Shown here: positions 2,012-31,539 of the stretch, piece by piece
Layout of the letters: each line of letters opens with the position of its first letter
How positions within the stretch are numbered: the stretch's first letter is position 1
IMG/VR virus record: IMGVR_UViG_2537561944_000032
DNA from: a virus
Taxonomy: Duplodnaviria > Heunggongvirae > Uroviricota > Caudoviricetes
DNA length: 39,436 bases
Reading direction: 5' to 3' (one strand)
Position numbers and translations under genes: made by a program
The notes under the pieces: model-generated
Told to the model about the DNA's origin: nothing
Databases searched by the model: none
Seen by the model: the letters and a program-made list of their open reading frames with translations, nothing else

Positions 2012-2152
2012 TTACTGCTTACACTGTAAGAACGCCGCAAACTCCGCTCCCCAGAAGCTCATCCGTATTTCACACAGCGAACCGCGTAGCATCCAGATGA
2101 TGAGGATTACCGTCACGCAGAACGTGATGGCTGTAAGCGATTTTTGCGACAT
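2012..2152 (-). CDS. Hok/Gef-family type I toxin-like small membrane peptide (46 aa)
   Basis: Translation MSQKSLTAITFCVTVILIIWMLRGSLCEIRMSFWGAEFAAFLQCKQ: single TM segment followed by the SLCE(I/L)R and AAF motifs shared with Hok/HokA/Gef as I recall them; GGAG RBS 8 nt upstream of ATG; stable hairpin (cgggggagcaatcccccg) immediately after the stop. Below the 60-aa ORF-track cutoff, found by manual translation. Confidence 0.6.
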   Translation of the reverse strand: MSQKSLTAITFCVTVILIIWMLRGSLCEIRMSFWGAEFAAFLQCKQ

Positions 2153-2889: not shown

Positions 2890-4029
2890 TCAGCTGCAAA
2901 TTTCGTTGTTGCTGCATGTTATCTCTTCAAGTGCAGCGGCGTTATAATCAACGGAATGATCAACCTGTGATGTAGGTCTGCCAAAAAATTCAACCCCTGA
3001 CATAATCATGTTGCCGATATTCTCTCGCTGTTTATCACTGAGCCTGTCCCACCACTCAGGGGATGAATATGTATTTTCGGCCTTTGTGAAGAAAAAATAC
3101 AGAAGGGTATTGAACATCCTGTTAGCTGGGATCTTAATTAGTGTCCGTATAAAACGTCTGATAATTGTTGAAGTTCTCAGCCAACTGAACACTACATATC
3201 CCTTACCTCCGCAGGAAAAAGCATTGAAACATACTTGTTCCGCCGACACTGTAAGATCGCTCAAATCCTGAATTTTGGTCCCATCGAAATCCCTCTCCGG
3301 TGAAAGAATTGACGAAACTACAATTGGTAAAGGCTCTGCAAAAGTGAAGATAACACTTTCAATTTCTGAAAATTGCCTGCTAAGTAGGATGCGGTCGAGG
3401 CTAGTTTTAAGATTATTTAATTCAATTATTGCTGCATTTAAGCCACTTTGGTGCTGGTCGATTAATTTCTGAATATAATACTGTTCAACTTGTAGCTTTC
3501 CTTTATCGGCATTTTTAGCAAAATCAGAAGATAGCACTCCCCCTTCTTTGGCATAAATTTCTTTAGACAATGAACGAAACATTAAGGCAAAGCACTGCTC
3601 GTCCGTGCCTGTAAATTTTTCGTTCTCTAGGCATGAAAATAAGATTCTGTCATGAACTGCACAAAATCCTGTAAAAGTGGATGCCTGATTGATACCGATC
3701 TTCTCGGGAAGCCATTTTCCGTTGTTTCTCATCAGGCTTGCTAAGTTCATTATCACCCCCATGACGTGATTGCTGGAGTCGGCGATCGCCTTAAGGCTAC
3801 TGCTCTTAGATATCGTATGCGCCTGAACGATGCGTTTATCACAATCTTCGTGCATGGATGCTGGCGCATAACATGCCTTTCTCTGCGAGAGAGACTTTGA
3901 AAATTTCAGTGCCTCGGCTTTGGATACCGGAGTTTCACGATCTCGACCAAGATGGCACTTTTTATACTTAAGTCCTGAATTACACCAGCACTTATCATTT
4001 CTTCCTAATTTCACTTTATTGTTTCCCAC
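2890..4029 (-). CDS. hypothetical protein with N-terminal SEC-C metal-binding motif (379 aa), cargo gene in AT-rich island
   Basis: ORF begins ...GRNDKCWCNSGLKYKKCH (CxC-x8-CH SEC-C motif); remainder has no family I recognise; region is markedly AT-rich relative to flanking phage genes; inserted between D and ogr, which are adjacent in P2. Start codon uncertain (GTG at 4029 or downstream GTG). Confidence 0.6.
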   Translation of the reverse strand: MGNNKVKLGRNDKCWCNSGLKYKKCHLGRDRETPVSKAEALKFSKSLSQRKACYAPASMHEDCDKRIVQAHTISKSSSLKAIADSSNHVMGVIMNLASLMRNNGKWLPEKIGINQASTFTGFCAVHDRILFSCLENEKFTGTDEQCFALMFRSLSKEIYAKEGGVLSSDFAKNADKGKLQVEQYYIQKLIDQHQSGLNAAIIELNNLKTSLDRILLSRQFSEIESVIFTFAEPLPIVVSSILSPERDFDGTKIQDLSDLTVSAEQVCFNAFSCGGKGYVVFSWLRTSTIIRRFIRTLIKIPANRMFNTLLYFFFTKAENTYSSPEWWDRLSDKQRENIGNMIMSGVEFFGRPTSQVDHSVDYNAAALEEITCSNNEICS

Positions 4030-5279
4030 GAAATTAATGTTCTATAACAAAAACACTTATCGAAAATAGGTGTAATTTATCACTCCGGCAGCTAAAAGAT
4101 CATCTGCCACATGCACGATAATAAATCTTCCTTGCGTCATCATCTCCCTCTGTTCTTAAATCAGGTGTTGCCTGTGTGCGGAGGATTCGCGAAGTACAGT
4201 AGCCGAAATGCATGATCTTACCCATCAATGGTGAGCACGCGATAATAAGTGAGTCCCTAATTGACCACTCATGGCAATACAACTTCAACCAGCATTCATG
4301 ACCACTATCCGTGGATTAACTGTTACATAAGCAACACCTGCTCTAGGCACAAAGCGGGCTGCCAGATTGGGTCTGGCACTGTGCTGTGAGTGTGTCAGTT
4401 CTGGTTTGAGTCAATACATCTAATTTGCTCATTCTGTTTCTGCTATCCATTCCGGGATTTTTGCTTCAAGCTCAAGCTGTGTGGTAAAGCCGCTGTTATC
4501 AATGGTGTGCTCGGCTTTTGCAATAATCCAGTCCTGATTATCGATGTCACTTTTGAAGCCTGTCACCGTGCCATGCATTTCGGGATAGAGTTCTGCGCGT
4601 CCACGCGCCAGCGTGATGGAGAATGATGCGGCTCCGCGTTGTAGCTGCTGCCACTTTGCCGCCGCTGCACGTCTTGCTGCCTGCTCGTTCTGATAAGTCT
4701 TGCGTAACACAAACACGTTGCCTTCCGCACCTTCCATATAGTCACCTTCACGGCTGCTGCTTTTCTCCTTTTTCGGTTTGCGGCGTTTCACGCTGACTTT
4801 TTTCTTTTCCCGTAATTAAGATCAAGCCAGTAAGCACGTACCCCCGTATACGCTTCGCGGTCAGCAATGCGGAACTGATGGCGATCGCCACTGCTGCGCG
4901 TGATGGCGAACGATGGCAACGGCTGGCCCTGTGCGTTCACGCCACCGCCTGGCATGATGAATAACAGATTACTGCTTTTTACCGTAGTGATTGCGCCCAG
5001 CATTTCCGCCATGCGCGTAAGGAAGGACATGTCGCTTTCTTCGGTCTGGTCGGCGTGGTCGATTTCAATATCCATCAGCATTTCGCTGATTTGTGGTTTC
5101 AGACCGTACCGATGAGCGATGGCGGATACCACGCGCTCAACGGTCACATCATGCCAGGACACCTCACGTTTAACGTTAAATTCATCCCGAAAATCTGCGC
5201 TTCTGGCTGAAACAGTCAGCCTGTCCGGCGGTCCTTCGTGAGCGATTTCATCAACAATGTAAGTGCCTTTTTCTGTCAG

Positions 5280-5306
5280 TGAGGTAGCCTGAGTTTAACG
5301 GACACT
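5280..5306 (+). repeat. IS left terminal inverted repeat
   Basis: tgaggtagcctgagtttaacggacact; matches reverse complement of 6517-6543 at about 19/27 positions, including the terminal TGAGGT and the CGGACACT block. Confidence 0.7.
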
Positions 5307-5343
5307 CCTTCCTGAAATAGAATGGCATCAGAAGGAGCTAATA

Positions 5344-5646
5344 ATGAGCAGAAAAACCCAACGTTACTCTAAAGAGTTCAAAGCCGAAGCTGTCAGAACG
5401 GTTCTTGAAAATCAACTTTCGATCAGTGAAGGCGCTTCCCGATTATCTCTTCCTGAAGGCACTTTAGGACAATGGGTTACCGCCGCCAGAAAAGGGCTCG
5501 GTACTCCTGGTTCCCGCACGGTGGCTGAACTGGAATCTGAAATTCTGCAACTGCGTAAGGCGTTAAATGAAGCTCGCCTTGAGCGAGATATATTAAAAAA
5601 AGCAACAGCGTATTTTGCACAGGAGTCGCTGAAAAATACGCGTTAA
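5344..5646 (+). CDS. IS3-family transposase OrfA (HTH DNA-binding, 100 aa)
   Basis: MSRKTQRYSKEFKAEAVRTV...LERDILKKATAYFAQES; typical IS3 OrfA with leucine zipper; contains slippery A_AAA_AAA_G at 5595-5602. Confidence 0.85.
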   Translation: MSRKTQRYSKEFKAEAVRTVLENQLSISEGASRLSLPEGTLGQWVTAARKGLGTPGSRTVAELESEILQLRKALNEARLERDILKKATAYFAQESLKNTR

Positions 5647-6500
5647 TCGAACAATGGCGACAACAATTTCCCATTGAAGCGATGTGTCAGGTATTTGGTG
5701 TATCCAGGAGCGGTTATTACAACTGGGTACAGCATGAACCCTCAGACAGAAAACAAAGTGATGAGCGGCTAAAACTGGAGATTAAGGTGGCACATATCCG
5801 CACTCGCGAAACATATGGAACCCGGCGGCTCCAGACGGAGCTGGCAGAGAATGGCATCATCGTTGGTCGTGACCGACTGGCACGTCTTCGTAAGGAGCTA
5901 AGGCTACGCTGTAAGCAGAAACGCAAGTTCAGAGCGACTACGAACTCGAACCACAATCTGCCAGTTGCGCCAAATCTGCTGAACCAGACGTTCGCTCCTA
6001 CAGCACCAAATCAGGTCTGGGTGGCGGACCTGACGTATGTTGCCACACAGGAGGGATGGTTGTACCTCGCTGGCATCAAAGATGTTTATACGTGCGAAAT
6101 TGTCGGCTACGCCATGGGAGAGCGCATGACAAAAGAGCTGACAGGTAAAGCTCTGTTTATGGCGCTCAGGAGCCAGCGCCCACCTGCCGGGCTAATCCAC
6201 CACTCTGATCGAGGTTCACAGTACTGCGCATACGATTACCGGGTCATACAGGAGCAGTTTGGTCTGAAAACATCAATGTCGCGTAAAGGTAACTGTTACG
6301 ACAACGCTCCGATGGAAAGCTTCTGGGGAACGCTGAAAAATGAGAGCCTGAGCCACTATCGTTTTAATAACCGGGATGAAGCCATCTCAGTAATACGGGA
6401 ATACATTGAGATTTTCTACAATCGTCAGCGTCGTCACTCTCGTCTGGGGAATATCTCCCCGGCAGCCTTCAGGGAAAAATATCATCAGATGGCTGCTTAA
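5595..6500 (+). CDS. IS3-family transposase OrfB (DDE integrase domain), expressed as OrfAB fusion by -1 frameshift
   Basis: Frame -1 relative to orfA is open from 5583; reads KKSNSVFCTGVAEKYALIEQWRQQFPIEAMCQVFGVSRSGYY... with DDE catalytic core (HSDRGSQY...NAPMESFWGTLK); start coordinate given at the slip site. Confidence 0.8.
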   Translation, partial: KKSNSVFCTGVAEKYALIEQWRQQFPIEAMCQVFGVSRSGYYNWVQHEPSDRKQSDERLKLEIKVAHIRTRETYGTRRLQTELAENGIIVGRDRLARLRKELRLRCKQKRKFRATTNSNHNLPVAPNLLNQTFAPTAPNQVWVADLTYVATQEGWLYLAGIKDVYTCEIVGYAMGERMTKELTGKALFMALRSQRPPAGLIHHSDRGSQYCAYDYRVIQEQFGLKTSMSRKGNCYDNAPMESFWGTLKNESLSHYRFNNRDEAISVIREYIEIFYNRQRRHSRLGNISPAAFREKYHQMAA

Positions 6501-6516
6501 AAAAAGAACAAATGGT

Positions 6517-6543
6517 AGTGTCCGCTATTGCCAGTACACCTCA
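6517..6543 (+). repeat. IS right terminal inverted repeat
   Basis: agtgtccgctattgccagtacacctca; terminal CA; its last three bases create the TGA stop that truncates the gpD N-terminal fragment. Confidence 0.7.
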
Positions 6544-6952
6544 CAGCGGTTCTCCTTTCCAGCCAATGAGAACCGTCAGGCGCGCGCCCCGTGGCGGTAG
6601 CTGCAACTGACCATCCGCATCATCCAGCGTGATGGTGAGCAGGTCCGCTTCAAATCCCCGGTTGTCGGTCAGTGACAGGCTCATCAGGCGCTCTGCCACG
6701 CCGGACAGTGTTTCCCCCTCCGCGAGAATATCAAAATCCGGCATTTTCACGGGGTCTGTGCTCTGACTGAGCAATTGCATGGTGGTATCGGTCATCTGTT
6801 CCCTCCCTGTGCGGCATGGTCGCATGTGCGTGCATAGGGGGTTACTGCTTTTTGTTGTCGCCGTGGCGGGAGAACGGCGCAGGGGTGAGATTACGCGCGT
6901 GGTGGGTGATGATTGTTGCCGAATCATTTAACGGATACAAGGGGCTGAAGCT

Positions 6953-8137
6953 ATGAGTGAAACTCGTTTTCATGGTGCCCGTGTTACGGAAAGTACCGAC
7001 CTGGTAACAGCGATTAATGATGTTGATTCCAGTGTTATCGGTATCGTGGCAACGGCGGATGATGCGGACGCGGAGCTGTTCCCGCTGAACAAGCCCACAC
7101 TGCTGACCCGCGTCAATGACGTGCTGGGAAAATGCGGGACTACGGGGACGCTTTATCGTGCGCTTAAGGCTATTGCAGACCAGGTGAGCACAAAAGTGAT
7201 CGTCGTTCGCGTGGCTGAACACAAAGAAGAAGGCGGTAAGACGCAGGATCAACTGGTTATCGGTGGTTCTGAATCTGACGGCAGCTATACGGGGATGTAT
7301 GCGCTGCTTGTTGCAGAGCAGGATGAAAGCATCGGATACCGTCCGCGTATTCTGGCCGCGCCGGAGCTGGACACGGAGGCGGTGACAAAATCCCTGTGCG
7401 TGATTGCGGGTAAACTGCGCGCGTTTGTGTATGCCTCATGTCATGACTGTAACACGATGGCTGAGGCAATTACCTACCGCCAGAAATTCAACGAACGTGA
7501 GGTGATGCTCTTATGGCCGGACTTCATCGCCTACAACCCGAAAAGTGGCAAAAACGAAACGTTCCCCGCGCCTGCCTATGCGTGCGGCCTTCGTGCGTAC
7601 ATTGACCATGAGCAGGGCTGGCACAAATCGCTGTCCAACGTTCCTGTTAAAAATGTGCTGGGGATGTCCAGGCATGTTTTCTGGTCGTTGCAGGCCGAAG
7701 ACAGTGATGCCAACAGCCTCAACAACAAAGAAATCACGACCATTATTCGTCGCAACGGGTTCCGCTTCTGGGGCAACCGCACACCGGAAACGAACGCCTA
7801 CATCTTTGAGGTGTATACCCGAACCGCACAGGTGCTGGCTGATTCAATTGCGGAAGCGCAGTTTGAAACCATCGACAGTCCACTGACGCCTGCGAACGTG
7901 AAGGATGTTATCAGTGCCATCAGGGCAAAACTGGATTCGCTGGTTACTGCCGGGAAACTGATTGGCGCGGAGTGCTGGTATGACGTGGTGGATAACAGCA
8001 CCACGGATTTACGTCAGGGGCGTGTGCGTATTCGCTACAAATATACGCCCGTTCCGCCACTGGAAGACATGGAGCTTTACCAGACGTTTACTGATGAATA
8101 CTTTGAACCCGCATTTGCGGTGCTGGGAGGTGCCTGA
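6953..8137 (+). CDS. FI: contractile tail sheath protein (P2 gpFI-like)
   Basis: 394-aa ORF, size and sequence consistent with P2 FI (396 aa); followed directly by FII, E/E', T, U in P2 order. Confidence 0.85.
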   Translation: MSETRFHGARVTESTDLVTAINDVDSSVIGIVATADDADAELFPLNKPTLLTRVNDVLGKCGTTGTLYRALKAIADQVSTKVIVVRVAEHKEEGGKTQDQLVIGGSESDGSYTGMYALLVAEQDESIGYRPRILAAPELDTEAVTKSLCVIAGKLRAFVYASCHDCNTMAEAITYRQKFNEREVMLLWPDFIAYNPKSGKNETFPAPAYACGLRAYIDHEQGWHKSLSNVPVKNVLGMSRHVFWSLQAEDSDANSLNNKEITTIIRRNGFRFWGNRTPETNAYIFEVYTRTAQVLADSIAEAQFETIDSPLTPANVKDVISAIRAKLDSLVTAGKLIGAECWYDVVDNSTTDLRQGRVRIRYKYTPVPPLEDMELYQTFTDEYFEPAFAVLGGA

Positions 8138-8649
8138 TGGCTGTACCAAAACATCTTCGCTTTTTTACGCTGTTTGTGGATGGTGAAAACGAAGTGGGTA
8201 AGGTGACGTCCGTCACTCTGCCTAAGCTGACGCGCAAAACCGACAGCTACCGGGGTGGTGGCATGATGGGTGCGGTAAGTATTGATCTCGGTCTGGACGA
8301 CTCCGCGCTTGATGCGAGCTTTGTCATGGGGGGCGCAGTTCGTGAGCTGTTCCTTAAGTATGGCGGCACGATTGACGGCACGCTGCTGCGTTTTGCGGGT
8401 GAATATTACACCGATGCAGAAAGCGACCTGTATGAAGTCGAAATGCGCGGACGTGTGACGGAAATTGATATGGGGGAAGCCAAACAGGGCGAAGCCACAT
8501 CACACACTTACGCCATTAAAAACACCTACTACAAGCTGAGTGTTAACGATCGCCCGTTGTGGGAGATTGACCTGCTGAACTTCATTTACCGGAAGGACGG
8601 CAAGGACATTGTGCCCGATCGCATCCGTTCCGCGCTCGGGCTTGGCTGA
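8137..8649 (+). CDS. FII: tail tube protein (P2 gpFII-like)
   Basis: 170-aa ORF immediately after FI (ATGA overlap), size as P2 FII (172 aa). Confidence 0.85.
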   Translation: MAVPKHLRFFTLFVDGENEVGKVTSVTLPKLTRKTDSYRGGGMMGAVSIDLGLDDSALDASFVMGGAVRELFLKYGGTIDGTLLRFAGEYYTDAESDLYEVEMRGRVTEIDMGEAKQGEATSHTYAIKNTYYKLSVNDRPLWEIDLLNFIYRKDGKDIVPDRIRSALGLG

Positions 8650-8703
8650 TAAGTAATATGCAGGCGGCGCAGTGCGTCGCCTCTGACTGAAAGGAGTTTC
8701 CTG

Positions 8704-9069
8704 ATGAAAGAGACGAAAAACATCGATACCGAAAACACGGTAGTTGCTGACACTGTGAAAGAAACCAGTGAGCGTGGTGTAAAACTTACCCAACCAATTG
8801 AGCGAGGCGGCGAAAAAATCACGTATGTGGAGATCACCGGGGCTATTGAGCAGGCTGGATCTCTGCGAGATTTGTCGCTGTCTGATGTGCTGAATCTGAA
8901 AGCGGAATCCATGTTTACGCTGCTGTCACGCGTGACATCACCGCGACTGGATGAAGTGACGATCAAAAAAATGGCATCCCGTGACTTTATTCAGTTATGT
9001 GTGGTTGCCGTAAATTTTTTGAGCGGTGCGGACTCTGGCGGGAAGAACGAACAGGCGACGGAAGCCTGA
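8704..9069 (+). CDS. E: tail assembly chaperone gpE; gpE+E' produced by -1 programmed frameshift (8704..9021 joined to -1 frame ending 9233)
   Basis: Small acidic ORF between tube and tape-measure genes; slippery T_TTT_TTG at 9015-9021; -1 frame ORF 8997..9233 encodes conserved E' extension (FEHIEDFVADIAVIFNWSPAEIF). Confidence 0.8.
   Translation: MKETKNIDTENTVVADTVKETSERGVKLTQPIERGGEKITYVEITGAIEQAGSLRDLSLSDVLNLKAESMFTLLSRVTSPRLDEVTIKKMASRDFIQLCVVAVNFLSGADSGGKNEQATEA
9015..9021 (+). other. programmed -1 ribosomal frameshift slippery heptamer TTTTTTG (gpE to gpE+E')
   Basis: T6G in the 0-frame context aat ttt ttg; same heptamer and position as the P2 E/E' frameshift site. Confidence 0.75.
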
Positions 9070-9210
9070 TCACGGTTGTGTGCTTTGAGCACATAGAAGA
9101 CTTTGTGGCAGATATTGCCGTTATTTTTAACTGGTCGCCCGCCGAAATCTTCATGATGACGCCCGGCGAAGTGGTTAGCTGGCGTGAGCGGGCGGCACTT
9201 CGCAGCGGGA

Positions 9211-12027
9211 ATGCAGACAATGAAGACTCTTGATATCCGGGTCGCTTTCAGCGCCGTTGACAGGCTGACCCGGCCTGCCGAAAACGCCCGCCGCCTGATG
9301 GGGCAGTTTGGTGACTCCATCCAGCGAACGCAGGGGGCGATTAAAAATCTCGAGCGTCAGGCTCGTTCATTTGAGCGCGCCCGCGACGCTGTCAGTAAAG
9401 CGGATGCGGGTATCGTGAAAGCACGACGCCAGCTTAACGCCCTTAATCAGTTACAACGCACGGGTACAGTGCTCAGCGAAAAACAACAAAAGCTGATGCA
9501 GCAGTTAAGCACCCGGCTTGAACGCCTGAATGAATCGCGCACACGGGAAATTCAGAAAATGCGGGAGCTTGGCGGAGAGCTGAAACGCCACGGCATTTCC
9601 CTGACAGGCAGCGATAACACCATCCAGCAGGCCATCAGACGCACCGAACAGTACAACAACCAGCTTGAACGCGAACGGCAGGCGCTTGCGCGTGTAACGC
9701 GGGCGCGTAAGTGGTATTCGCGCGCGCAGGAAACCGCGGGAAAACTGAAAACAGGTGGTGCGCTGGCAATTGGTGCGGCAGCGGCGGGCGGCTATGCTGC
9801 CGGGCGTTTTTTGCAGCCCGCGATCGGGTTCGGCAAAGAGATGTCCCGCGTTCAGGCGCTGACGCGAATCGACCAGAACAGCCCGCAGTTTAAGGCGCTG
9901 CGTGAGCAGGCGTTAAAACTTGGCTCTGAAACGCAGTTCACCGCAGGCGATGCCGCCAGTGGGCAGGCATTTCTTGCAATGGCAGGCTTCACACCGCAGG
10001 CCATTCAGGCTGCGCTTCCCGGAGTGCTGAGCATGGCAACGGCTGGCGGTATGGATCTCGGCGAGACGGCGGATATTGGCTCAAATATCCTGACGCAGTT
10101 CGGCCTTTCTGCTGACCAGATGGACCGGGTCGGTGACACACTCACCGCAGCGTTTACCCGTACCAACACTGACCTTCGCGCACTGGGCGAAACCATGAAA
10201 TATGCAGGTCCGGTGGCGGGTAAGCTGGGAATATCGCTGGAGCAGGCCGCAGCGATGGCTGGTGTGCTGGCGAATATGGGCATCAGAGGGAGTGATGCCG
10301 GGACGGCAATGCGTGCCAGCCTGGCTCGTCTGGCATCACCGCCAAAGGCGGCGGCAGAAGCTCTGAAAGAGCTGGGCGTGTCCGTCTCGGATGCCGGGGG
10401 TAAAATGCGCCCGATGGAGGATGTGCTGGCCGACCTTTATAAAGCCACCCGCAAATACGGGGAAGTTGACCGGGTATCGTTCTTTAAGGACATTGCCGGA
10501 GAAGAGGCTTTCACATCGTTTATGGCGCTCGTTGATGCAGTGGGTGACGGTTCCTTACCCAAACTGAGAAAAGAACTTGAAGGCGCGCGCGGTGAGGCTG
10601 AACGCACAGCAAAGGTTATGGCCAACAACCTTGACGGCGATCTGAAATCACTCGGCAGTGCATGGGAAGGGTTGCGCATCCGCATTGCAGATCTGATTGA
10701 CGGTCCGCTGCGTTCTGTCACGCAGTGGCTCACGCGGGTGGTATCAAGGGTGACGGCGCTGGCGCAGGCCCATCCGGCACTGACGCGCCAGCTACTGATA
10801 GCAGGCGGTGCGTTGCTGGCAATGACTGCAACGGTTGGCTCGTTGTCGCTGGCTATTGGTGTGCTTGCTGGTCCGCTGGCAAAACTGCGTCTTGGTTTTT
10901 CTCTCCTGACCGGATCAATGAATGCTGTCAGGGTCCTGCCAGCACTATGGGGAATGGTGACGGGTTCCGTTTCTTTACTGGGAGGCGCTATCGGGGCGCT
11001 GTTCAGTCCGGTTGGTCTTATCGTGGCTGCGCTTGCCGGAGCTGCCGTCCTTATCTGGAAATACTGGGATCCCATCAGGGCATTTTTTGCCGGGGTGTTC
11101 AGCGGGATTATGGAAAGGCTGAACCCGTTGCGTGAAACCTTTGAACGGTTTGGCCCTGTTTTTGACGCAATCGGAAGCGGGATCAGCCAGGTGTTTAACT
11201 GGTTTAAATCGCTGCTGTCACCGATGGAGTCCAGCAAGGAAACGTTGGATAAATGTACCAGTGCTGGCGAGATATTCGGTAACGTTCTTGGCGGTGCGTT
11301 ACAACTTGTTCTGACACCTGCAAAAATGCTACTGGATACGCTGGCGTGGATACTTGAAAAACTTGGCGTCCTTCCGGATGAAGCGGAAAGGGCGCGCAAG
11401 AAAATCGAAGACGCACAGCGTGCGGCCATTCTTCAGGATAAGGTTGCCTTACTTCAGGGGGACCTGGCGAAAATCAATCCGCCGAAGCCTGTGGAAAATG
11501 GCAATGGCACCGGAGGTGATAAACCCAAAGACAACAAACCGCTCACAGACAGCAATACCGGGACGCTACGCAGACTCAGCAAAATTGCTGATAACACAGG
11601 TAAGCTGGTTGATGAGACGAAAAAACGCATTGGCCCCGGCGATATTGTCTTTAAGAACCTGCCCCGCGCACTTGCTGTTCGTGGGGAGTGGCAGGAGCGG
11701 AAGATTGCGCAGGTCAGTAAGCCTGCCCCCGCAATTAATATCACACCCGTAGTCCCGGCTCCGCTGCCTCCGGCGCTGGTCCCTGTTGTTGCGGCCAGCT
11801 CCCGCCCGGTGGCGGAGGCCATACGATCGCCAGTGGCATCAGTTCCTGCAGCTTCCCGTAATCGGGAGCCTGCTGTCTCCAGATTTGGCGGTGAAATTCA
11901 TGTTCATCTGCATAACGTTGTTACGCAGAATCCCCGCGAACTGGCGAAACTGGTCGGTGAAATGGTCAGGGCAGAAATGGAACGGCGCGCCCGTGCCGGG
12001 CGTGGCAGTTTTTACGATAAAGATTGA
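9211..12027 (+). CDS. T: tail tape measure protein (P2 gpT-like)
   Basis: About 940-aa protein with extended coiled-coil N-terminal half and Gly/Ala-rich hydrophobic segments; position between E' and U. Start ambiguous (ATG 9211 or 9220; ORF opens at 9184). Confidence 0.85.
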   Translation: MQTMKTLDIRVAFSAVDRLTRPAENARRLMGQFGDSIQRTQGAIKNLERQARSFERARDAVSKADAGIVKARRQLNALNQLQRTGTVLSEKQQKLMQQLSTRLERLNESRTREIQKMRELGGELKRHGISLTGSDNTIQQAIRRTEQYNNQLERERQALARVTRARKWYSRAQETAGKLKTGGALAIGAAAAGGYAAGRFLQPAIGFGKEMSRVQALTRIDQNSPQFKALREQALKLGSETQFTAGDAASGQAFLAMAGFTPQAIQAALPGVLSMATAGGMDLGETADIGSNILTQFGLSADQMDRVGDTLTAAFTRTNTDLRALGETMKYAGPVAGKLGISLEQAAAMAGVLANMGIRGSDAGTAMRASLARLASPPKAAAEALKELGVSVSDAGGKMRPMEDVLADLYKATRKYGEVDRVSFFKDIAGEEAFTSFMALVDAVGDGSLPKLRKELEGARGEAERTAKVMANNLDGDLKSLGSAWEGLRIRIADLIDGPLRSVTQWLTRVVSRVTALAQAHPALTRQLLIAGGALLAMTATVGSLSLAIGVLAGPLAKLRLGFSLLTGSMNAVRVLPALWGMVTGSVSLLGGAIGALFSPVGLIVAALAGAAVLIWKYWDPIRAFFAGVFSGIMERLNPLRETFERFGPVFDAIGSGISQVFNWFKSLLSPMESSKETLDKCTSAGEIFGNVLGGALQLVLTPAKMLLDTLAWILEKLGVLPDEAERARKKIEDAQRAAILQDKVALLQGDLAKINPPKPVENGNGTGGDKPKDNKPLTDSNTGTLRRLSKIADNTGKLVDETKKRIGPGDIVFKNLPRALAVRGEWQERKIAQVSKPAPAINITPVVPAPLPPALVPVVAASSRPVAEAIRSPVASVPAASRNREPAVSRFGGEIHVHLHNVVTQNPRELAKLVGEMVRAEMERRARAGRGSFYDKD

Positions 12028-12033
12028 GGAGTC

Positions 12034-12528
12034 ATGGCCATGATGATGATCTATGGCATGTTTGTTTTTGAGCTGCGCACGCTGCCGCATCAGCAGTTAC
12101 AGCAAAATAAAAGCTGGCGGCATGTGAAAAATGAACGCGTTAACCGTTCAGCAAGCTGGCAGTATATCGGTGCAGGTGATGATCGCATCGTTCTTTCTGG
12201 TGTGCTTTATCCTGAAATTACAGGTGGCGAAGTGTCGCTGTCTCTGCTGACCACGCAGGCGTATACAGGACGGCCCTGGCCTCTGATTGATGGCGTCGGG
12301 CAGATTTACGGCATGTATGTCCTGACCGAAACGAATACGACCCGCTCCGAGTTTGATCGCTACGGTAAGTCGAAAAAGATAGAATTTTCACTGACTCTTG
12401 AACGCTGTGATGAGGATTTGCGGGAGCGCCTGCAATCCTCATCGTTCAGCGATATGTTGTCCGGCTTCAAAGATAAGGTGACATCATCCCTTAATAGCGC
12501 GACCAGCTCAGTTAAGGGGCTGCTCTGA
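12034..12528 (+). CDS. U: tail protein gpU-like
   Basis: 164-aa ORF (MAMMMIYGMFVFELRTLPHQ...) resembling P2 gpU (159 aa); directly after tape measure. Confidence 0.8.
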   Translation: MAMMMIYGMFVFELRTLPHQQLQQNKSWRHVKNERVNRSASWQYIGAGDDRIVLSGVLYPEITGGEVSLSLLTTQAYTGRPWPLIDGVGQIYGMYVLTETNTTRSEFDRYGKSKKIEFSLTLERCDEDLRERLQSSSFSDMLSGFKDKVTSSLNSATSSVKGLL

Positions 12529-12684
12529 TTTAACGTATGTCGCCAATTTCCTGATGAAGGTGACTGGCGACTTGCTGTTGTATGTCCTTCTCAGAAAATT
12601 GTTTTTGAATAACAAACAACAGGATTTTATAATCTCTTAACCTTATAATATGTGTGGTCTGAAATAATAATTAAGGAGATTATC

Positions 12685-13257
12685 GTGCTGTCTTACTTAA
12701 TGGCAATTCACTTTGCTTTATTTGGGGACTCTACTAATTTAAAAAACTTCTGGAAATATGAAGTAATTCGGCGGAAACGTATGGATATCTGGAGGCTTTT
12801 AAGAGAGAAAAAACAGCGTAACCGGAATTTCCTTTTCTGGTGGCGGTTGGCTAACGAAATGTATATTAATGGTAATAAATTACATAAGAAAGCAGCCAAA
12901 AAGTTAAACAGTAAAATAATTAACAAATTTGGTTGTGAAATTGGATTGGGCGCAAATATTGGAAAAGGGTTAACAATTCCCCATCATGCTGGAATTGTTG
13001 TTCATTTTGCTGTTGATGCTGGTGAAAATCTGGTGTTACGACAGAATACTACCATTGGACAGATAGATGGTGACATGCCTGGTTCAAGAGTAAAAATTGG
13101 TAGTAACGTTGATATCGGAGCTAATTGTTGCATCATTGGATTATCACGTAAAATTGGGGATAATGTAAAAATAGGTGCAATGTCTTTTATAAATAAAGAT
13201 ATACCATCGAACTGCACATATATAACTAAAAAGAGCGGTGTTGTATTGTATAAATAG
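12685..13257 (+). CDS. hexapeptide-repeat (left-handed beta-helix) acetyltransferase, CysE/LacA/WcaB-like; cargo gene
   Basis: Repeated [LIV]-G-x-x-x-x-I hexapeptide units (IGKGLTIPHHAGIVV...VKIGSNVDIGANCCIIG...KIGDNVKIGAMSF); GTG start at 12685 with AAGGAG RBS (ATG at 12700 alternative); region 12570-13260 is strongly AT-rich; followed by hairpin terminator. Confidence 0.75.
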   Translation: MLSYLMAIHFALFGDSTNLKNFWKYEVIRRKRMDIWRLLREKKQRNRNFLFWWRLANEMYINGNKLHKKAAKKLNSKIINKFGCEIGLGANIGKGLTIPHHAGIVVHFAVDAGENLVLRQNTTIGQIDGDMPGSRVKIGSNVDIGANCCIIGLSRKIGDNVKIGAMSFINKDIPSNCTYITKKSGVVLYK

Positions 13258-13265
13258 AGTACATA

Positions 13266-13300
13266 AAGCCATCTATATTTCAATCGATGGCTTTTTCTCT
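13266..13300 (+). terminator. rho-independent terminator after acetyltransferase gene
   Basis: gccatc...gatggc stem followed by TTTTTCTCTTTATT. Confidence 0.55.
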
Positions 13301-13879
13301 TTATTGTGGGGCGACTGGCCACTCAACATCCGCTGCTACCGCTGTATTAACACGATTCAACAATACCCGGTATGTCTTCCATGCAGCCAGTAACGATGCC
13401 TCTTCCTCCGTTGCAATATCCAAATCTACGGCATCCTGAAGTGGCGCAATATGCTCGCTGGCTACCTGCATCAGGCTGTTTTTTGTTTCTTCCGCCTCCC
13501 TTATCCGAAACAGTTTTTCTGCTTCTGCATCTTTCACCCAGGATGTGCCGTTCCACTTCTGATACTCTCCATACGGCGACAACCAGGTAACATTTTCCGG
13601 TAATGGACCGAGTTCAGAAATAAATAACGAGTCCCCTGATGCCACGTCATAAACCGTTTTACCCCGATGGTCTTCAACGAGATGCCACGATGCCTCATCA
13701 CTGTTGAAAACGGCCACGAAGCCAGCCGGAATATCTGGCGGGGCAATATCGGTACTGTTTGCAGGCAGACCTGTATGAGGTGGAATGTATGCATCACCTT
13801 CACCAATAAACTCATTGGTTCCGGTCAGTAGATTATAAATTTTTATGGTCCGTGAGTGTTCACTCATTCTGAATGTCAT
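13301..13879 (-). CDS. G: tail fiber assembly protein (P2 gpG-like)
   Basis: 192-aa ORF immediately downstream of the tail fiber gene on the same strand; typical size and position of gpG/Tfa. Confidence 0.75.
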
Positions 13880-16011
13880 TATGCAAGCCTCACAATATAG
13901 TTAAATGCGATGTTTTTTACGGTGTTTTCTTCGTTACCCGTAGCGTTAACGGTGATGGTGTGTCCGTGGGGACCAATAATGACAGAATGGGCATGAGCAC
14001 CAATGCCGATAGTGTGGTTATGGGCACCGATATATACATTGTGAGCATGCTCGCCTGCGCTCGACGTGGTACCAGTACCTAACGCAGCGTTATAACCGGC
14101 TGATACACCATTCCCCGCGCCAGTGTGACCAACAGGTATATTGTGTGAATGATTTCCAGCGCTATTCGTAGTTTTTGTGCCGTAATCAAATGAACTGGTC
14201 GTTTTAGTACCGTAATCAAACGACGATGTGGTTTTCGTCCCCAAATCCGTACTGGATGCGCTGGCGCTGTGGGTGTGCGATTTAATGCCGTCCTGTTCCT
14301 GAGACAATACGGCACGACCACTGCCGGGCTTGCCCTTAATCGTCCAGCCACGCATATCAGGAATAACGCCTGACGGATAAGCGACTGCAAGTTTCGGGTA
14401 TGCAGATTTGTCAAAAGTCTGCCCCTGCATCAGGGCATAACCAGACGGAACGGTATCTGATGGCCACGGAATCGGTGCACCGACTGGATAAAACTCTTCA
14501 GGAGGATGAGCCGAGGTGTAAAGCTGCGCCCACGGCGACCAGTTTGCGTCGGGCGTATCCCGTCGTGAACGAATAAATGCCGGAGCATGAGCACCGCTTA
14601 TACCACTCCAGCCGATGAGTAATTCGCCTTCGCCAACGGCTGTCATCCCTTTCAGGTGAATGATATTTCCATACGTTGTTGGATATCCGTTGTTATACGC
14701 CTCGTATAACTCCAGACCTGTGGCCCCCTGCATATTATCTGTCAGGGCGGTCAGCCGACCTTTTGAAGCCAGATTAACTGACGATACTGCTGTCCCATCT
14801 GACGGTAACGCCCCGATCTCTGATGCTGTTGGCTTATTCCTGGAGTTATAGTCCCTTCGCCAGCCAGGAGCATAAGCATCACCATGATTAATATAAGTAA
14901 ATTGAGCATTAGGGATGCCTTCACCGCTGGATGTACTCGGTGTGGTAATGCGTATGGTCATTGCGCCGCGGGTGCCAATAACTTCCACAACAGCACCTGC
15001 AAGACAAATACTTCCGCAACCTGTATCTGTAATGACCTTATTATTTGCATAAGCCCATGAGCCTTTGCACATCCAGTAAGGATGGTTAAATGCCCCCTGA
15101 CTCTCTAGCCAAAAAATCAACTGCGCAGTTGTCCATGCTTCACTATCTCCACCAATATTCAGCTCTGCACTATATGCACGGCAGGCACCGATATTTTTCG
15201 TAAAGGTGTCTTTATCAGAGATATCCTCACCATTCTTAGCTTTCTGCAGACGTTTTTCAGCATTGTCATAGGCAGCTTTTACTGCATTTGATGTTGCCGC
15301 CAGCGTTTCAGATGTACTGTTGGTTGCACTACTAAGCTGGACAAGGCCTTTTCGCGCTGTTGTGGCATCCTGCGCTGTATATTTTCCGTTAGCAAGATCA
15401 TACGCGACCTTAACCGCTTTCGGCGTTGCAGCCAGCGTTTCAGAATCGCTGTTAGTGGCGCTACTGAGTTGAACAAAGCCTTTTGCGGTCAGCGAGGCAT
15501 CCGGGTGACATCGTGACTGTTCATGCTCTTTCAGTTCGTTATCCACGTAATCCACTGTGGCCATCACCATGGTGTTATCCACGGTAAGCGCCACAGTGGC
15601 AGTGCTGGATACGGTCAGAATGGTGCGAAATGTTTGTGCACGTCCGGACCCTTCGGCAACGGCTGGCTTGTAACTTTCGGCAGTATTGCCCACCGCGATT
15701 AAATCGCCGTGCTCATCAAACACACCAATTTCCCGGATCCAGAATCCGCCCGTTTCTGGAGGAATAACCAGCTCCGCAATAATGCGGTTCTGATGTGTTG
15801 CGTCCAGGATGACGCGATTAACAGTGTGTCGCCACACCTCATGCACCAGACGGGTCTGCTTACTGTCTGGTGTGGGCAACGCGCCGCCACCGTCGCCCAC
15901 GGCCATATGAGTCAGGCGGACAGGCTTACCATCTGGCGCGGCTGCCTGAGCTAATTTTTTGGCACCTGTATCGGTGATAACGGTTTTAAATTTTCGTGTT
16001 GTGGTACTCAT
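13879..16011 (-). CDS. H: tail fiber protein (P2 gpH-like) with divergent His-rich C-terminal receptor-binding tip
   Basis: N-terminal two-thirds match P2 gpH as I recall it, including the duplicated [23 protein letters not shown] segment; C-terminus carries HxH repeats ([33 protein letters not shown]). Confidence 0.9.
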
Positions 16012-19480: not shown

Positions 19481-21358
19481 TTACGCTGCAGGACTATTTA
19501 TTTCCAGCACCAGACTTTCTATCTCAACGCCATACGTTGCATTTTTGGTAATATCCGTCAGCGTCAGTGCATTCAGCCCCAGTGTCAGACTGTCTTTTAT
19601 GACCTGGAATGCCGGGCCAGCCACTCCATTCAGTTTCGGAGTAACCGTGGCACTGCTGGCGGTGAACACCAGCTCCAGCGTCTGCCAGTCGTTACTGTAA
19701 TTCCCGAACTCGCCCAACTTTGTGTTTCCTGCTTTCTTGTGATGCATCAGATTCAGTTTGCCGTCTGTGGTCTGGGTGAAGAACGACATCAGGAACGGGT
19801 TACCAGTCCCGGTCATCGCCACGACGTCAGGTAACGCTACATCGGTATACAGATAAATTCCCAGACCGAACTGATTGTTGGTCAGTGCGCCTGACAGGCG
19901 GAACTTACAGGTCAGTCTGCCGCCCTGTGTCAGCAGGGTAATTGCGTCATCCACCGGATGCGTCAGGGACCAGGTTTTATTGCTCTGCTTGGTGATCTTA
20001 AATACACCATCTGACAACTGAATTCCGCCATCCTTAATGCTCCAGCCCTGCGCAGCAGCCTCTCCGGCTGCCGGCAGCAGGGAGATTGTGCGAACGGACG
20101 TATCTGCAGACGGACCCGATGGCGTGTTGCCGCCGGGCGAGGGTTTGATTTCCGGTGCCTTACCACTGATGAAGGCTAAGGTGCGACCGGCTACGTTCAG
20201 AATAGCGGTTGCCATACGATCCGGAATAATGCTCCTGCGCGCCCATGAACTGAAATGCGTCTGGCGATTTGATGATACCCAGTTTTTGTTCGTTCGGGAT
20301 GCCGAACCGTAATATCCCTCACTTGCAGCATCCGGATCTTCCGTTGGTGCGTTGGTGGAGGTATTGTTGCCACTACCATCGGTCAGGAATGGCACAAAGA
20401 AAACGTTGTCGCTCTCCCTGTTTTTGTACGCCCCGTAAATGGTGTCGTACTGCGTGCCGTAGGTGTTTTTCCAGTAATACGTCGTGTCACCACAAATCCA
20501 TGGCACACTTGCCGCTCTGCCTCCATGACACTGCGTGTTAAACTCGGTAATGTCCGCACGAAACTGTTTCAGCATGGCCGCAAACAGCGGAGGTTGCTGT
20601 GAGTACGTAGCGGCGCTCATGTCAAATTCGCCCTGCATCCAGCATACGGCCAGCAGCATGTTTTTTGGGTTTTTCTGCAATGCGGCCTTCGTGCGCAAAA
20701 TCAGGTCCTGATATAAAGGTTTACCCACACCCCAGCGAGCCGAATCCTGACTGGCTCCTGTGGACTCGCTGAATGTCCCCTCCGCGCCCTGGGTGAATGC
20801 CGAACCACCACGACAGCATGGAACCAGTAAAATCCCGGCATTCTGTGGAATGTAAGGCAACAGGCGTTTGGCAATATGCAAGCCCTGTCCGACACAGCCA
20901 TACTGCCCTTTGCTCAGGTCTGCATTCGGGTGATTCAGTACGCTCATATCCTGAACATCATGCAGGCAGTGATCTGCCGGAATGATGTCGTTAAATGCGC
21001 ATGCTTTACCACCGGGAGTCACTGTGTTGCGACGGGCCAGTTGCTTAATGCGTGGGTGGGGCGCATCGTAAGAATCCGGCAGCGGCATTCCCTCACCATA
21101 TGACATGGCATTGGATTGACCAGCAAGTACCACCACGTAATACCACTCCGGCACGCTGCCGTGCTGGGGGGAATCAGGTGAGATGTCTGTAGTGCCATCG
21201 GCCACCATTGCCTGCATTAGATACCACGGGGTGCCGGGTTCGTAGGCAACCCGCGTCTCCCCCTGAAGATGCCACCCTTTCGCAAGATGTTCATTCACCT
21301 TTTGAGTCAGTTCAGCCTGTGTCATGGCTGTAATCAGTGCAAAGTTCTTACTGGTCAT
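19481..21358 (-). CDS. prophage NanS-p-like protein: N-terminal DUF1737 + SGNH-hydrolase/sialate O-acetylesterase-like domain + C-terminal beta-rich domain (625 aa); cargo gene
   Basis: N-terminus MTSKNFALITAMTQAELTQKVNEHLAKGW resembles DUF1737; VVLAGQSNAMSYG contains the GQSN motif of the DUF303/SASA esterase family; inserted between lysC and R, which are adjacent in P2. Confidence 0.7.
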   Translation of the reverse strand: MTSKNFALITAMTQAELTQKVNEHLAKGWHLQGETRVAYEPGTPWYLMQAMVADGTTDISPDSPQHGSVPEWYYVVVLAGQSNAMSYGEGMPLPDSYDAPHPRIKQLARRNTVTPGGKACAFNDIIPADHCLHDVQDMSVLNHPNADLSKGQYGCVGQGLHIAKRLLPYIPQNAGILLVPCCRGGSAFTQGAEGTFSESTGASQDSARWGVGKPLYQDLILRTKAALQKNPKNMLLAVCWMQGEFDMSAATYSQQPPLFAAMLKQFRADITEFNTQCHGGRAASVPWICGDTTYYWKNTYGTQYDTIYGAYKNRESDNVFFVPFLTDGSGNNTSTNAPTEDPDAASEGYYGSASRTNKNWVSSNRQTHFSSWARRSIIPDRMATAILNVAGRTLAFISGKAPEIKPSPGGNTPSGPSADTSVRTISLLPAAGEAAAQGWSIKDGGIQLSDGVFKITKQSNKTWSLTHPVDDAITLLTQGGRLTCKFRLSGALTNNQFGLGIYLYTDVALPDVVAMTGTGNPFLMSFFTQTTDGKLNLMHHKKAGNTKLGEFGNYSNDWQTLELVFTASSATVTPKLNGVAGPAFQVIKDSLTLGLNALTLTDITKNATYGVEIESLVLEINSPAA

Positions 21359-29609: not shown

Positions 29610-30200
29610 TCAGGTGTTATTTTTATCTGTCGTCAGTGGGCTAAACCATCCACGATTTACATCGCAGGACTGATGCGTTCTGTCCTCGTGTTTCTCCTGC
29701 CACAATGCTTTTCCGCCAGCCTTTATGATGGCTCTTTCAACATCCCGCTCGTATCGCAAGGGCTGAAATACGTCATTAATGAAATATTCGCTTATGTCCG
29801 GAAGCGATACTGCAAAATTATTTGTTTGTTGCGCCGTCCTGCTATGCAGCAAAGCGGCATACTTTAATGCGTCCTGTGCTTTCTGGAATTTAAGTGCATA
29901 GTCAGTGGCGATTTTTTCCAGTTCAGCGATTCGGTTGTCTTTGGTTTCCAGCCAATCAAGTAGCGCCAATACTTCAGGATCCCCGACATCCAACACTGTT
30001 ACGCGTGATTTTTCATAATGTTCGTCGGCAAGAGTTCGGCCAATTTTGAAATCTCCATCATCACCATAACCGGAGCAGGCATAAACAACCTGTGCTCCAG
30101 ATATTCGCTGAATTGACATTTCCTCGCCGCAAATAGGGCATTTCGGTACTGGCACAGGTGAATAACGTTCACGTAATGCCTGATAGTTGATTTCGCTCAT
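29610..30200 (-). CDS. hypothetical protein, Ead/Ea22-like N-terminus with CxxC...C zinc-ribbon-like motif (196 aa)
   Basis: Starts MSEINYQALRERYS...KCPICGEEMSIQRISGAQVVYACSG; AAGGAG RBS; last gene of the parM-parR-containing unit. Confidence 0.55.
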   Translation of the reverse strand: MSEINYQALRERYSPVPVPKCPICGEEMSIQRISGAQVVYACSGYGDDGDFKIGRTLADEHYEKSRVTVLDVGDPEVLALLDWLETKDNRIAELEKIATDYALKFQKAQDALKYAALLHSRTAQQTNNFAVSLPDISEYFINDVFQPLRYERDVERAIIKAGGKALWQEKHEDRTHQSCDVNRGWFSPLTTDKNNT

Positions 30201-30263
30201 TAAGTCGTTCTCCTTGTTTATGTTCTGAGGTGGAGAGCAGGGCGAACTCGCCCTGATGTTTTG

Positions 30264-30575
30264 TTATTCAGGAAATAACGCCCGGATATTTCCGGCCATC
30301 TGACTGGTTATCTGTGCGGTTGATACTGGCTGTGATGCGGGGCGTTCTGTCCTGGTTTGTGTCACTGATAACGCTTCATCACCAGCCCATGCAGCCAGTC
30401 GATAAGCCTCTGCCGGATTCATTTTCAGAAGTGCCAGCCCGGCCAGAAAAGCCACGCGTTGGCCGCTTTTGCGGGCTTCTGGTGTAAGGCTGTCCAGCCA
30501 GGCGCATGCTTCTCCTTCGTTCTTGACGGCGGTGGGCTTCAGATAGAAACTTATCCGTCTGGTTGGAGTCGTCAT
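30264..30575 (-). CDS. ParR/StbB-like centromere-binding adaptor (ribbon-helix-helix type)
   Basis: 103 aa from ATG 30575 (AAGGAG RBS, 2 nt after parM-like stop). RRISFYLKP...LDSLTPEARKSGQRVAFLAGLALL and C-terminal IRALFPE resemble plasmid R1 ParR as I recall it. Confidence 0.65.
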   Translation of the reverse strand: MTTPTRRISFYLKPTAVKNEGEACAWLDSLTPEARKSGQRVAFLAGLALLKMNPAEAYRLAAWAGDEALSVTQTRTERPASQPVSTAQITSQMAGNIRALFPE

Positions 30576-30579
30576 TGGT

Positions 30580-31539
30580 TTACTCCTTGTCCATTGCGTA
30601 CAGCCCATTAACCAGAGCAAACTGTGGCACCCCGTCCGCGATGAAAGTCGCATTAACTCCGCAGGCTTCGCGGATAGCGGGTGCCACAATCTCCGCCCCT
30701 CCACCGACAACCATCACCCGCCCGTAACCCGAAAAACCCGCCAGCGCGCGGATCACGCGTTGTTTCAGTGTTTCTTCCTTTTCACGAATAACCGCCATCA
30801 GGCTGGCGTAATGCGCGTCATTGTGGATGTGCTGGCGCAGCCAGGCTTCATCATGGCGATGTTCGATAATGGTATTGGCGATGTGGTGACTGGTGCGCAT
30901 ACCGTTAGTGGCCATCACCGACAGTACGGCATCGGCCATCAGAGAAACGCCCACGTGTGGATCGCAAAACACCTGGCTGATACCTGCCAGTTGCCCCTGA
31001 ACCTTTGCCACATCCAGAGTGGTTCCGCCCAAATCCACAATCAGCAGGGATTCAAACGGACTCATGTCAGCCAGTGCCTTAAAGCCAGCCGGAATGGATT
31101 CAGGCATAACCCGTACGTTACGGATAGTGAATGCTTCGCCGTTCTGGTACTCCACCGGGCGCATGACGTTCGCTTTTTTGCGGTTGATGTTGGCCATGTC
31201 CGGCTGTGCGTTTGTATCGAAATACTCGCTCAGTGGCAGGGTGACAACCACATCCACTTCCTGTGGTGTGATGCCTGATTTGACCAGCGCGTGATGAATG
31301 GCAATTATATTCACATCGCTGTACTGGTATTGCGTGTCGGTCGTCTGGACAAAGCGATCGCTGACCGGATCAAAACCATAGCGCACGCCATCAAGCATGT
31401 AGTTCGCGGGCTGCGTGCCACCGAACGGCGCAGACCATTCCGACTTGAAGCTGTTCGGGCTGATGGCGTTGCGGCGTTCGCCGTTCTCAGTCCATGCCAG
31501 CTTGATGTTGGTGGAGCCGTCGTCGATACAAATTTTCAT
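30580..31539 (-). CDS. ParM/StbA-like actin-family ATPase
   Basis: N-terminus MKICIDDGSTNIKLAW...ISPNSFKSEW...QYSDVNIIAIHHALVKSG closely parallels plasmid R1 ParM (FIDDGSTNIKLQW...ISPNSFKREW...QYSDVNVVAVHHALL) as I recall it; also the adjacent-Gly phosphate-binding loop DLGGTT. Confidence 0.8.
   Translation of the reverse strand: MKICIDDGSTNIKLAWTENGERRNAISPNSFKSEWSAPFGGTQPANYMLDGVRYGFDPVSDRFVQTTDTQYQYSDVNIIAIHHALVKSGITPQEVDVVVTLPLSEYFDTNAQPDMANINRKKANVMRPVEYQNGEAFTIRNVRVMPESIPAGFKALADMSPFESLLIVDLGGTTLDVAKVQGQLAGISQVFCDPHVGVSLMADAVLSVMATNGMRTSHHIANTIIEHRHDEAWLRQHIHNDAHYASLMAVIREKEETLKQRVIRALAGFSGYGRVMVVGGGAEIVAPAIREACGVNATFIADGVPQFALVNGLYAMDKE

Follow-up and report, generated by a model that had tools for sequence, protein, structure and literature searches.

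Between the stop codon of gene U and the stop codon of the tail-fibre assembly gene G (tfa; 13301–13879, minus strand), the window, by which we mean the whole stretch of 39,436 nt that was analysed, contains an AT-rich island (12529–13300) that encodes a predicted acetyltransferase. The acetyltransferase gene occupies positions 12685–13257 on the plus strand, opening with GTG at 12685, closing with TAG at 13255–13257 and specifying 190 aa; the GTG start agrees with the RefSeq/PGAP annotation of the prophage of strain E2865, and homologues of the protein align from residue 1, in keeping with this start. A ribosome-binding site, AAGGAG, is located 6 nt 5′ of the start codon (12673–12678, plus strand), and a sigma-70-like promoter candidate, TTGAAT-17 nt-TATAAT, is located at 12605–12633 on the same strand, where it is a consensus match only, at 10 of 12 positions. 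Downstream of the gene is a bidirectional intrinsic terminator hairpin with a U run on the plus strand (13265–13294). The hairpin folds on both the plus strand (ΔG −14.1, z = −5.3) and the minus strand (ΔG −12.3, z = −4.9) and so can end both the acetyltransferase gene and the convergent gene G. The island has a GC content of 34.2%, compared with 52.5% for the remainder of the prophage; the coding sequence itself has 34.7% GC and 29.8% GC3, while U, G and the tail-fibre gene H (13879–16011, minus strand) have 48–50% GC. An earlier note, made from the sequence alone, had described an AT-rich island holding a gene with its own ribosome-binding site and terminator on the strand opposite to G and H, and each of these points is borne out.

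In a blastn comparison of the window, the match to phage P88 stops at 12534, 6 bp past the U stop codon, and in two other phage backbones similarity begins at 12601–12603, just 5′ of the promoter candidate. Between these positions, a second hairpin (12538–12572, plus strand) may weakly terminate the FI-U late operon; the fold of 12525–12585 has a ΔG of −21.3 (z = −4.3), with no clean U run after the hairpin. The acetyltransferase gene is co-directional with the FI-U late operon, so read-through from U is possible. There are no tandem repeats within 12400–13400, which rules out phase variation of the gene, and the inverted repeats are only short and at chance level, which rules out transposon-like borders or the remnant of an invertible segment. 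A gix/cix-like core, AAACCNNGGTTT, is absent from the entire window, and no Rfam family matches within the island. Adjacent to the island, within the 3′ part of tfa, is a full-length Rfam match to IS009 (RF02111, 192 bits; 13338–13536, minus strand), a match that could be due simply to the conservation of tfa ends among K-12 cryptic prophages, with no separate sRNA involved.

As a prophage, the window belongs to the P2 family and, within it, to the P88-like lineage (genus Xuanwuvirus); its insertion point adjoins the tRNA Gly-Cys-Leu cluster of E. coli. The host is a Shiga-toxin-type E. coli, and the prophage of strain E2865 is 99.97% identical to the window apart from a copy of IS600 in the window. 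This IS3-family element (5280–6543), absent from the E2865 prophage, interrupts the late-control/tail gene D, leaving fragments at about 4429–5279 and 6544–6795 on the minus strand; with D split, the window copy of the prophage is probably tail-defective, though its acetyltransferase gene is intact. Other cargo is present elsewhere in the prophage. In particular, the ogr/D end carries a Hok/Gef toxin gene (2012–2152, minus strand) and, between D and ogr, a gene for a 379-aa YecA-family (SEC-C motif) protein (2890–4029, minus strand); a gene for a 625-aa DUF6645 protein, unusually large cargo at that place for a P2-family phage, is wedged between R and the lysis genes (19481–21358, minus strand); and the old/tin hotspot between Q and A (29610–31539, minus strand) carries Ea22-like, ParR-like and ParM genes, a plasmid-partition cassette having been reported in about a quarter of P2-like phages (Rousset et al. 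2022).

The position of the island corresponds to a variable locus of P2. The FI-FII-E-E′-T-U block (6953–12528, plus strand) is inverted relative to P2, with D remaining on the other strand; as a result of this inversion in the P88-like lineage, the island sits between the 3′ ends of U and G. At the same place, phage P88 carries a DNA invertase and an alternative fibre/chaperone pair. In true P2-type phages, defined here by an FI that is 80–88% identical to P2 FI, homologues of the acetyltransferase (51–66% identical) are found exactly between FI and G, the slot occupied in P2 by fun(Z) on the opposite strand. The earlier note had placed the gene at the Z/fun hotspot; the location downstream of G stands, as does the correspondence with the G-FI slot, which homologues fill in P2-type phages, but the slot here borders U, not FI. 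Given its location downstream of G, the variable occupancy of the site, its own expression signals and its foreign base composition, the gene qualifies as a moron at the P2 G-FI (Z/fun) locus. It shares with fun(Z) the slot, the orientation opposite to G and H, and, presumably, the character of non-essential lysogenic-conversion cargo; Fun(Z), at 528 aa, differs in function and has no sequence relationship to the window acetyltransferase.

[quoted passage not shown] The Pfam Hexapep match (E = 3e-05, 24 bits) falls just below its 27-bit cut-off; the best NCBIfam model is that of the exopolysaccharide-linked EpsC (75 bits), with cysE at 62 bits and WcaB at 55 bits, all well under curated cut-offs; and 31 PDB sequence matches reach 1e-12, the best being serine acetyltransferases. 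An AlphaFold (AF2) model built on 45 homologues (pLDDT 84) predicts five N-terminal helices (residues 1–82) followed by a left-handed beta-helix, together forming a globular protein that is soluble in form. In Foldseek comparisons, the model matches LbH enzymes with a probability of 1.00, and the best 50 PDB matches are all serine acetyltransferases, with TM scores of about 0.55–0.71. The candidate catalytic residues are Glu85 and His100. Specifically, the position equivalent to the catalytic acid of CysE (D143; Glu85) is Asp or Glu in all 107 aligned family members, and the position equivalent to the catalytic His of CysE (H158; His100) is His in 106 of them, so that the protein looks like a competent acetyltransferase. 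The description in the earlier note of a complete 190-aa LbH acyltransferase is therefore upheld by the NCBIfam, PDB and AF2/Foldseek results; its label "CysE/LacA/WcaB-like" holds for the CysE/WcaB branch, and the likeness to LacA is weak (28 bits). The AT3 (Acyltransferase_3) domain is absent, Pfam returning only Hexapep-type matches; no xenobiotic, streptogramin or chloramphenicol LbH acetyltransferase model is among the best 25 of 28 NCBIfam matches; and PADLOC returns no family at E ≤ 1 for the protein, ruling out a known defence system. The protein matches phrog_2154 (1e-87), a family to which no function is assigned.

The PGAP/RefSeq name of the gene is serine O-acetyltransferase. We compared the window protein and an alignment of 107 family members with K-12 CysE and WcaB, using MG1655 as the source of both references. 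The family HMM scores WcaB (94 bits, the best reference) above CysE (68.5 bits), and BLASTP identity is 35% to WcaB over the beta-helix and 32% to CysE over the LbH part. The window protein scores 61.7 bits against the cysE equivalog TIGR01172 (cut-off 210.65) and 36.8 bits against the CysE model NF008349 (cut-off 397); against the WcaB equivalogs it scores 54.8 and 53.5 bits (cut-offs 196 and 194.65), and its gene is in a prophage, not in a wca cluster. Pfam gives no match to the SATase_N domain at E ≤ 1. Of the residues that we take, from published CysE structures, to bind serine and cysteine (E. coli D92, D157, R192 and H193), the D92 region is absent in the family, the D157 position is occupied by Pro, Ala, Gly and others, and the R192 and H193 positions are variable across the 107 members; WcaB likewise has no serine ligands. 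The C-terminal CysK-binding tail ending in Ile is also absent: the protein ends ...SGVVLYK directly after the beta-helix, and C-termini are not conserved in the family.

CysE, with its helical domain and LbH, is the closest solved fold and shares the Asp-His pair, but it has 273 residues to the 190 of the window protein. WcaB (b2058) resembles the window protein in belonging to the SAT-like LbH branch, in its "HH" catalytic loop, in the missing serine ligands, and in its small size, solubility and short N-terminal helical part. It is not an orthologue: the N-terminal domain of the window protein has 82 residues rather than about 55, and the window protein is of a phage- and plasmid-encoded family rather than of the wca cluster. 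The window protein fails on every serine-acetyltransferase-specific feature that we examined, and the RefSeq name is probably wrong. The profile search proposed in the earlier note thus places the protein nearer to WcaB than to CysE by family HMM, with EpsC as the best NCBIfam model. Where the note left the acceptor as a surface polysaccharide or a metabolite, a glycan is favoured over serine, since the serine ligands are not conserved, the family HMM prefers WcaB, and relatives lie beside LPS and other glycan genes (below). One point counts against the glycan reading, namely that the nearest solved structures are all true serine acetyltransferases, with no WcaB structure to compare.

The family is widespread and under purifying selection. 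At least 350 members, each of about 190 aa, occur in Enterobacterales, Orbaceae and relatives of Pseudomonas. Among complete E. coli genomes, 530 of 5426 carry the gene, including O157:H7, O26, O111, O103 and O104:H4; the O serogroups represented are O157, O26, O111, O103, O104, O22 and O39, a spread that makes an O-unit-specific acceptor unlikely. Pairwise dN/dS relative to the window copy is 0.07–0.2 at 2–10% divergence; the 61 gap-free copies of full length are without exception intact. The gene is intact even in a heavily decayed O157:H7 remnant with a frameshift in the tape-measure gene and an IS in place of the fibre gene. The earlier note had raised the possibility of a truncated host cysE fragment carried over by imprecise excision; an identity of only 32% to K-12 CysE, a conserved full-length family of about 190 aa and dN/dS values of 0.07–0.2 exclude it. 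No published experiment on the family was found in the searchable literature. [quoted passage not shown] (2022) do not mention the acetyltransferase.

The acetyltransferase gene is unusually faithful to tail-fibre cassettes. Of the 34 viral loci taken as representatives, 24 have tfa immediately next to the acetyltransferase gene in convergent orientation, as in the window, and fibre or tfa genes are within about 1.5 kb in 6 more. This linkage spans acetyltransferase identities from 99% to 45% and P88-like, P2-type, P1-like and lambdoid backbones, and the protein distances of the acetyltransferase and the adjacent tfa product co-vary (Mantel r = 0.67, a value reached by 0 of 2000 permutations). 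Such co-divergence of adjacent genes is linkage, not function. A 1.8-kb exchange block (12693–14492), comprising the acetyltransferase gene, tfa and the last ~205 codons of H, is 93–94% identical in blastn of the window to P1-like phage-plasmids; in these plasmids the acetyltransferase gene lies between the two tfa genes, and in JL22 it lies within the cin-flanked fibre segment. The adjoining cassette of tfa and fibre tip, which belongs to the lambda stf/tfa type, is found, at about 90% identity, in 4441 of the 5426 genomes, nearly always without the acetyltransferase. An obligate pairing with lambda stf/tfa-type fibres is accordingly rejected, and the enzyme is an optional passenger, not a fixed partner. 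Two further features of H were observed: a 392-bp stretch (14845–15236) that, when inverted, matches the alternative fibre genes of P88 and the P1-like JL22 at 88% identity and that, judged by this match, appears to be the trace of a past exchange of fibre segments, and a 30-nt tandem duplication (14168–14227) that encodes a repeated peptide.

Several relatives are located beside genes for LPS or other surface glycans. In Xenorhabdus prophages, a gene for a GT25 LPS glycosyltransferase begins 59 bp 3′ of the homologue on the same strand, with baseplate and fibre genes adjacent (for the X. bovienii pair, 5001–6393 in loci L023–L025). In a Salmonella Gifsy-like prophage (loci L092/L093), the homologue and an HtrL/YibB-family gene form a pair beside tfa; htrL, the K-12 member of this family, directly adjoins the rfaD-waaFCL operon for the LPS core. 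The Gifsy-like locus also has a gene for a PipA/GtgA-type effector next to the pair. In Halopseudomonas, a chromosomal homologue lies between an hldE-msbA-kinase group and a pseudaminic-acid cluster.

Other relatives are found in different surroundings. EPEC EAF-type plasmids (loci L009–L013) carry a 50% identical homologue at 6001–6594 amid IS66 debris, indicating that the family is also plasmid cargo; a type IV pilus cluster that is probably bfp (T2SSE ATPase, A24 prepilin peptidase, SLT) has its final gene about 2.3 kb 5′ of the homologue. Another homologue has hok and copA as neighbours at the end of a prophage, and a Rahnella homologue lies between a POT transporter gene and a GGDEF gene. 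These three settings are uninformative, and there are no glycan genes in either the Rahnella or the EAF-plasmid context. In Salmonella enterica, a small island (loci L019/L020; 5001–5567 and 9333–9959) holds a 64% identical homologue beside an integrase gene; the same island encodes another hexapeptide protein, of 208 aa, together with a toxin-antitoxin pair of the VapBC type. A census of neighbours over 77 species is mixed, so the evidence from context is suggestive rather than uniform.

We consider it somewhat better than even (a probability of roughly 0.55) that the gene encodes a lysogenic-conversion O-acetyltransferase, dependent on acetyl-CoA, that acts on a cytoplasmic intermediate of an envelope glycan, with LPS as the leading candidate, and changes the surface for phages or for the host. 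The gene would be a phage moron, self-contained in its promoter, ribosome-binding site, open reading frame and terminator and dispensable for phage growth. Its product would be a soluble, probably trimeric O-acetyltransferase of the SAT/WcaB branch of the LbH superfamily, with acetyl-CoA as the presumed donor. Expressed in the lysogen, and perhaps also late in infection via read-through from the FI-U operon, the enzyme would O-acetylate a sugar of an envelope glycan during its assembly on the cytoplasmic side of the inner membrane. The likeliest acceptor would be the LPS core or O-unit, with ECA or colanic acid as alternatives. The altered surface would cut adsorption of competing or sister phages, or would alter host recognition.

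There are precedents for such a role. Sf6 Oac and GtrC-type seroconverting acetyltransferases O-acetylate the LPS O-antigen and thereby block readsorption. O-acetylation of O-antigen by phage-borne enzymes has been described in general terms (PMC11332146). The logic proposed here is the same, but the seroconverting enzymes are polytopic membrane AT3 proteins acting in the periplasm, whereas the window protein, having no AT3 domain and being modelled as soluble, would have to use cytoplasmic intermediates. The best functional analogy is with NeuO of E. coli K1, an LbH enzyme of prophage CUS-3 that adds O-acetyl groups to the K1 capsule and gives protection from K1 phage (PMC3046976, PMC13001214) and that is likewise a prophage-encoded cytoplasmic O-acetyltransferase. 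NeuO represents a different LbH branch, being absent, although its structure is solved, from the 31 PDB sequence matches and from the top 50 Foldseek matches; its phase-variable heptanucleotide tract has no counterpart in the window gene, and CUS-3 is P22-like.

A second explanation, which we regard as unlikely, is that the acceptor is not a glycan but a small molecule (a toxin, an antibiotic or a signalling metabolite) or a macromolecule, in which case the protein would be a single-gene factor of defence or counter-defence, the kind of cargo to be expected at the P2 Z/fun hotspot. The P2 Z/fun slot is a recognised accessory and defence hotspot, and P2 fun(Z) blocks T5 (bioRxiv 10.1101/2024.10.15.618418). 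In addition, the gene forms a single-gene cassette with its own signals, and relatives occur as isolated cargo, both on EAF plasmids and next to hok at the ends of prophages. The empty PADLOC result and the lack of a xenobiotic-type model among the best 25 of 28 NCBIfam matches argue against this explanation, as do the conserved neighbours, which are fibre and LPS-type genes, not defence genes. Moreover, to our knowledge, LbH enzymes are not known as defence effectors.

The association with fibre genes raises the more specific, and doubtful, idea that fibre tip, chaperone and enzyme form a portable cassette for recognising and masking a receptor, with the enzyme acetylating precisely the LPS epitope to which the linked tip attaches. 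In that case, every receptor specificity would bring its own superinfection exclusion and its own protection against readsorption across P2-, P88- and P1-like and lambdoid phages. The abundance of the fibre-tip/tfa cassette without the acetyltransferase weakens this idea.

It is improbable that the protein is a compact, feedback-insensitive serine O-acetyltransferase, an auxiliary metabolic gene product that raises the supply of O-acetylserine and cysteine or the induction of CysB. The PGAP name and the uniformly CysE structural matches are consistent with such an enzyme, and the helix before the beta-helix aligns with the "YRIGHWLW" helix of CysE and the catalytic pair is conserved; but the substrate-binding residues D92, D157, R192 and H193 are not, the cysE score is less than a third of its cut-off, SATase_N and the CysK-binding C-terminus are missing, the family profile prefers WcaB, and the conserved synteny is with fibre genes rather than with sulfur metabolism. 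Least credible is a role in the virion, in which the enzyme would acetylate or mature the neighbouring tail fibre or chaperone as part of one functional unit: tfa is the conserved immediate neighbour, the enzyme gene travels in a single block with tfa and the fibre tip, and it is read in the same direction as the late FI-U operon in the window prophage, but near-identical fibre-tip/tfa cassettes function in thousands of prophages without the enzyme, P2 and P88 lack the gene, the gene lies on the strand opposite to G and H and has a housekeeping-type promoter candidate and a foreign base composition, and relatives are found far from any phage.

Roughly a tenth of complete E. coli genomes contain this gene, all of them under a name that the sequence does not support. 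If the product is instead a true serine acetyltransferase, or is inert, the gene is ordinary cargo. If acetylation of LPS or another envelope glycan is its true function, the gene would represent a lysogenic-conversion factor that has escaped notice in major pathogens, relevant to phage typing, phage therapy, serology and host recognition. Its tight travel with tail-fibre cassettes offers a simple model for the pairing of receptor recognition with receptor modification. The gene is probably a mis-named member of the surface-modifying phage morons, widespread in pathogenic E. coli.
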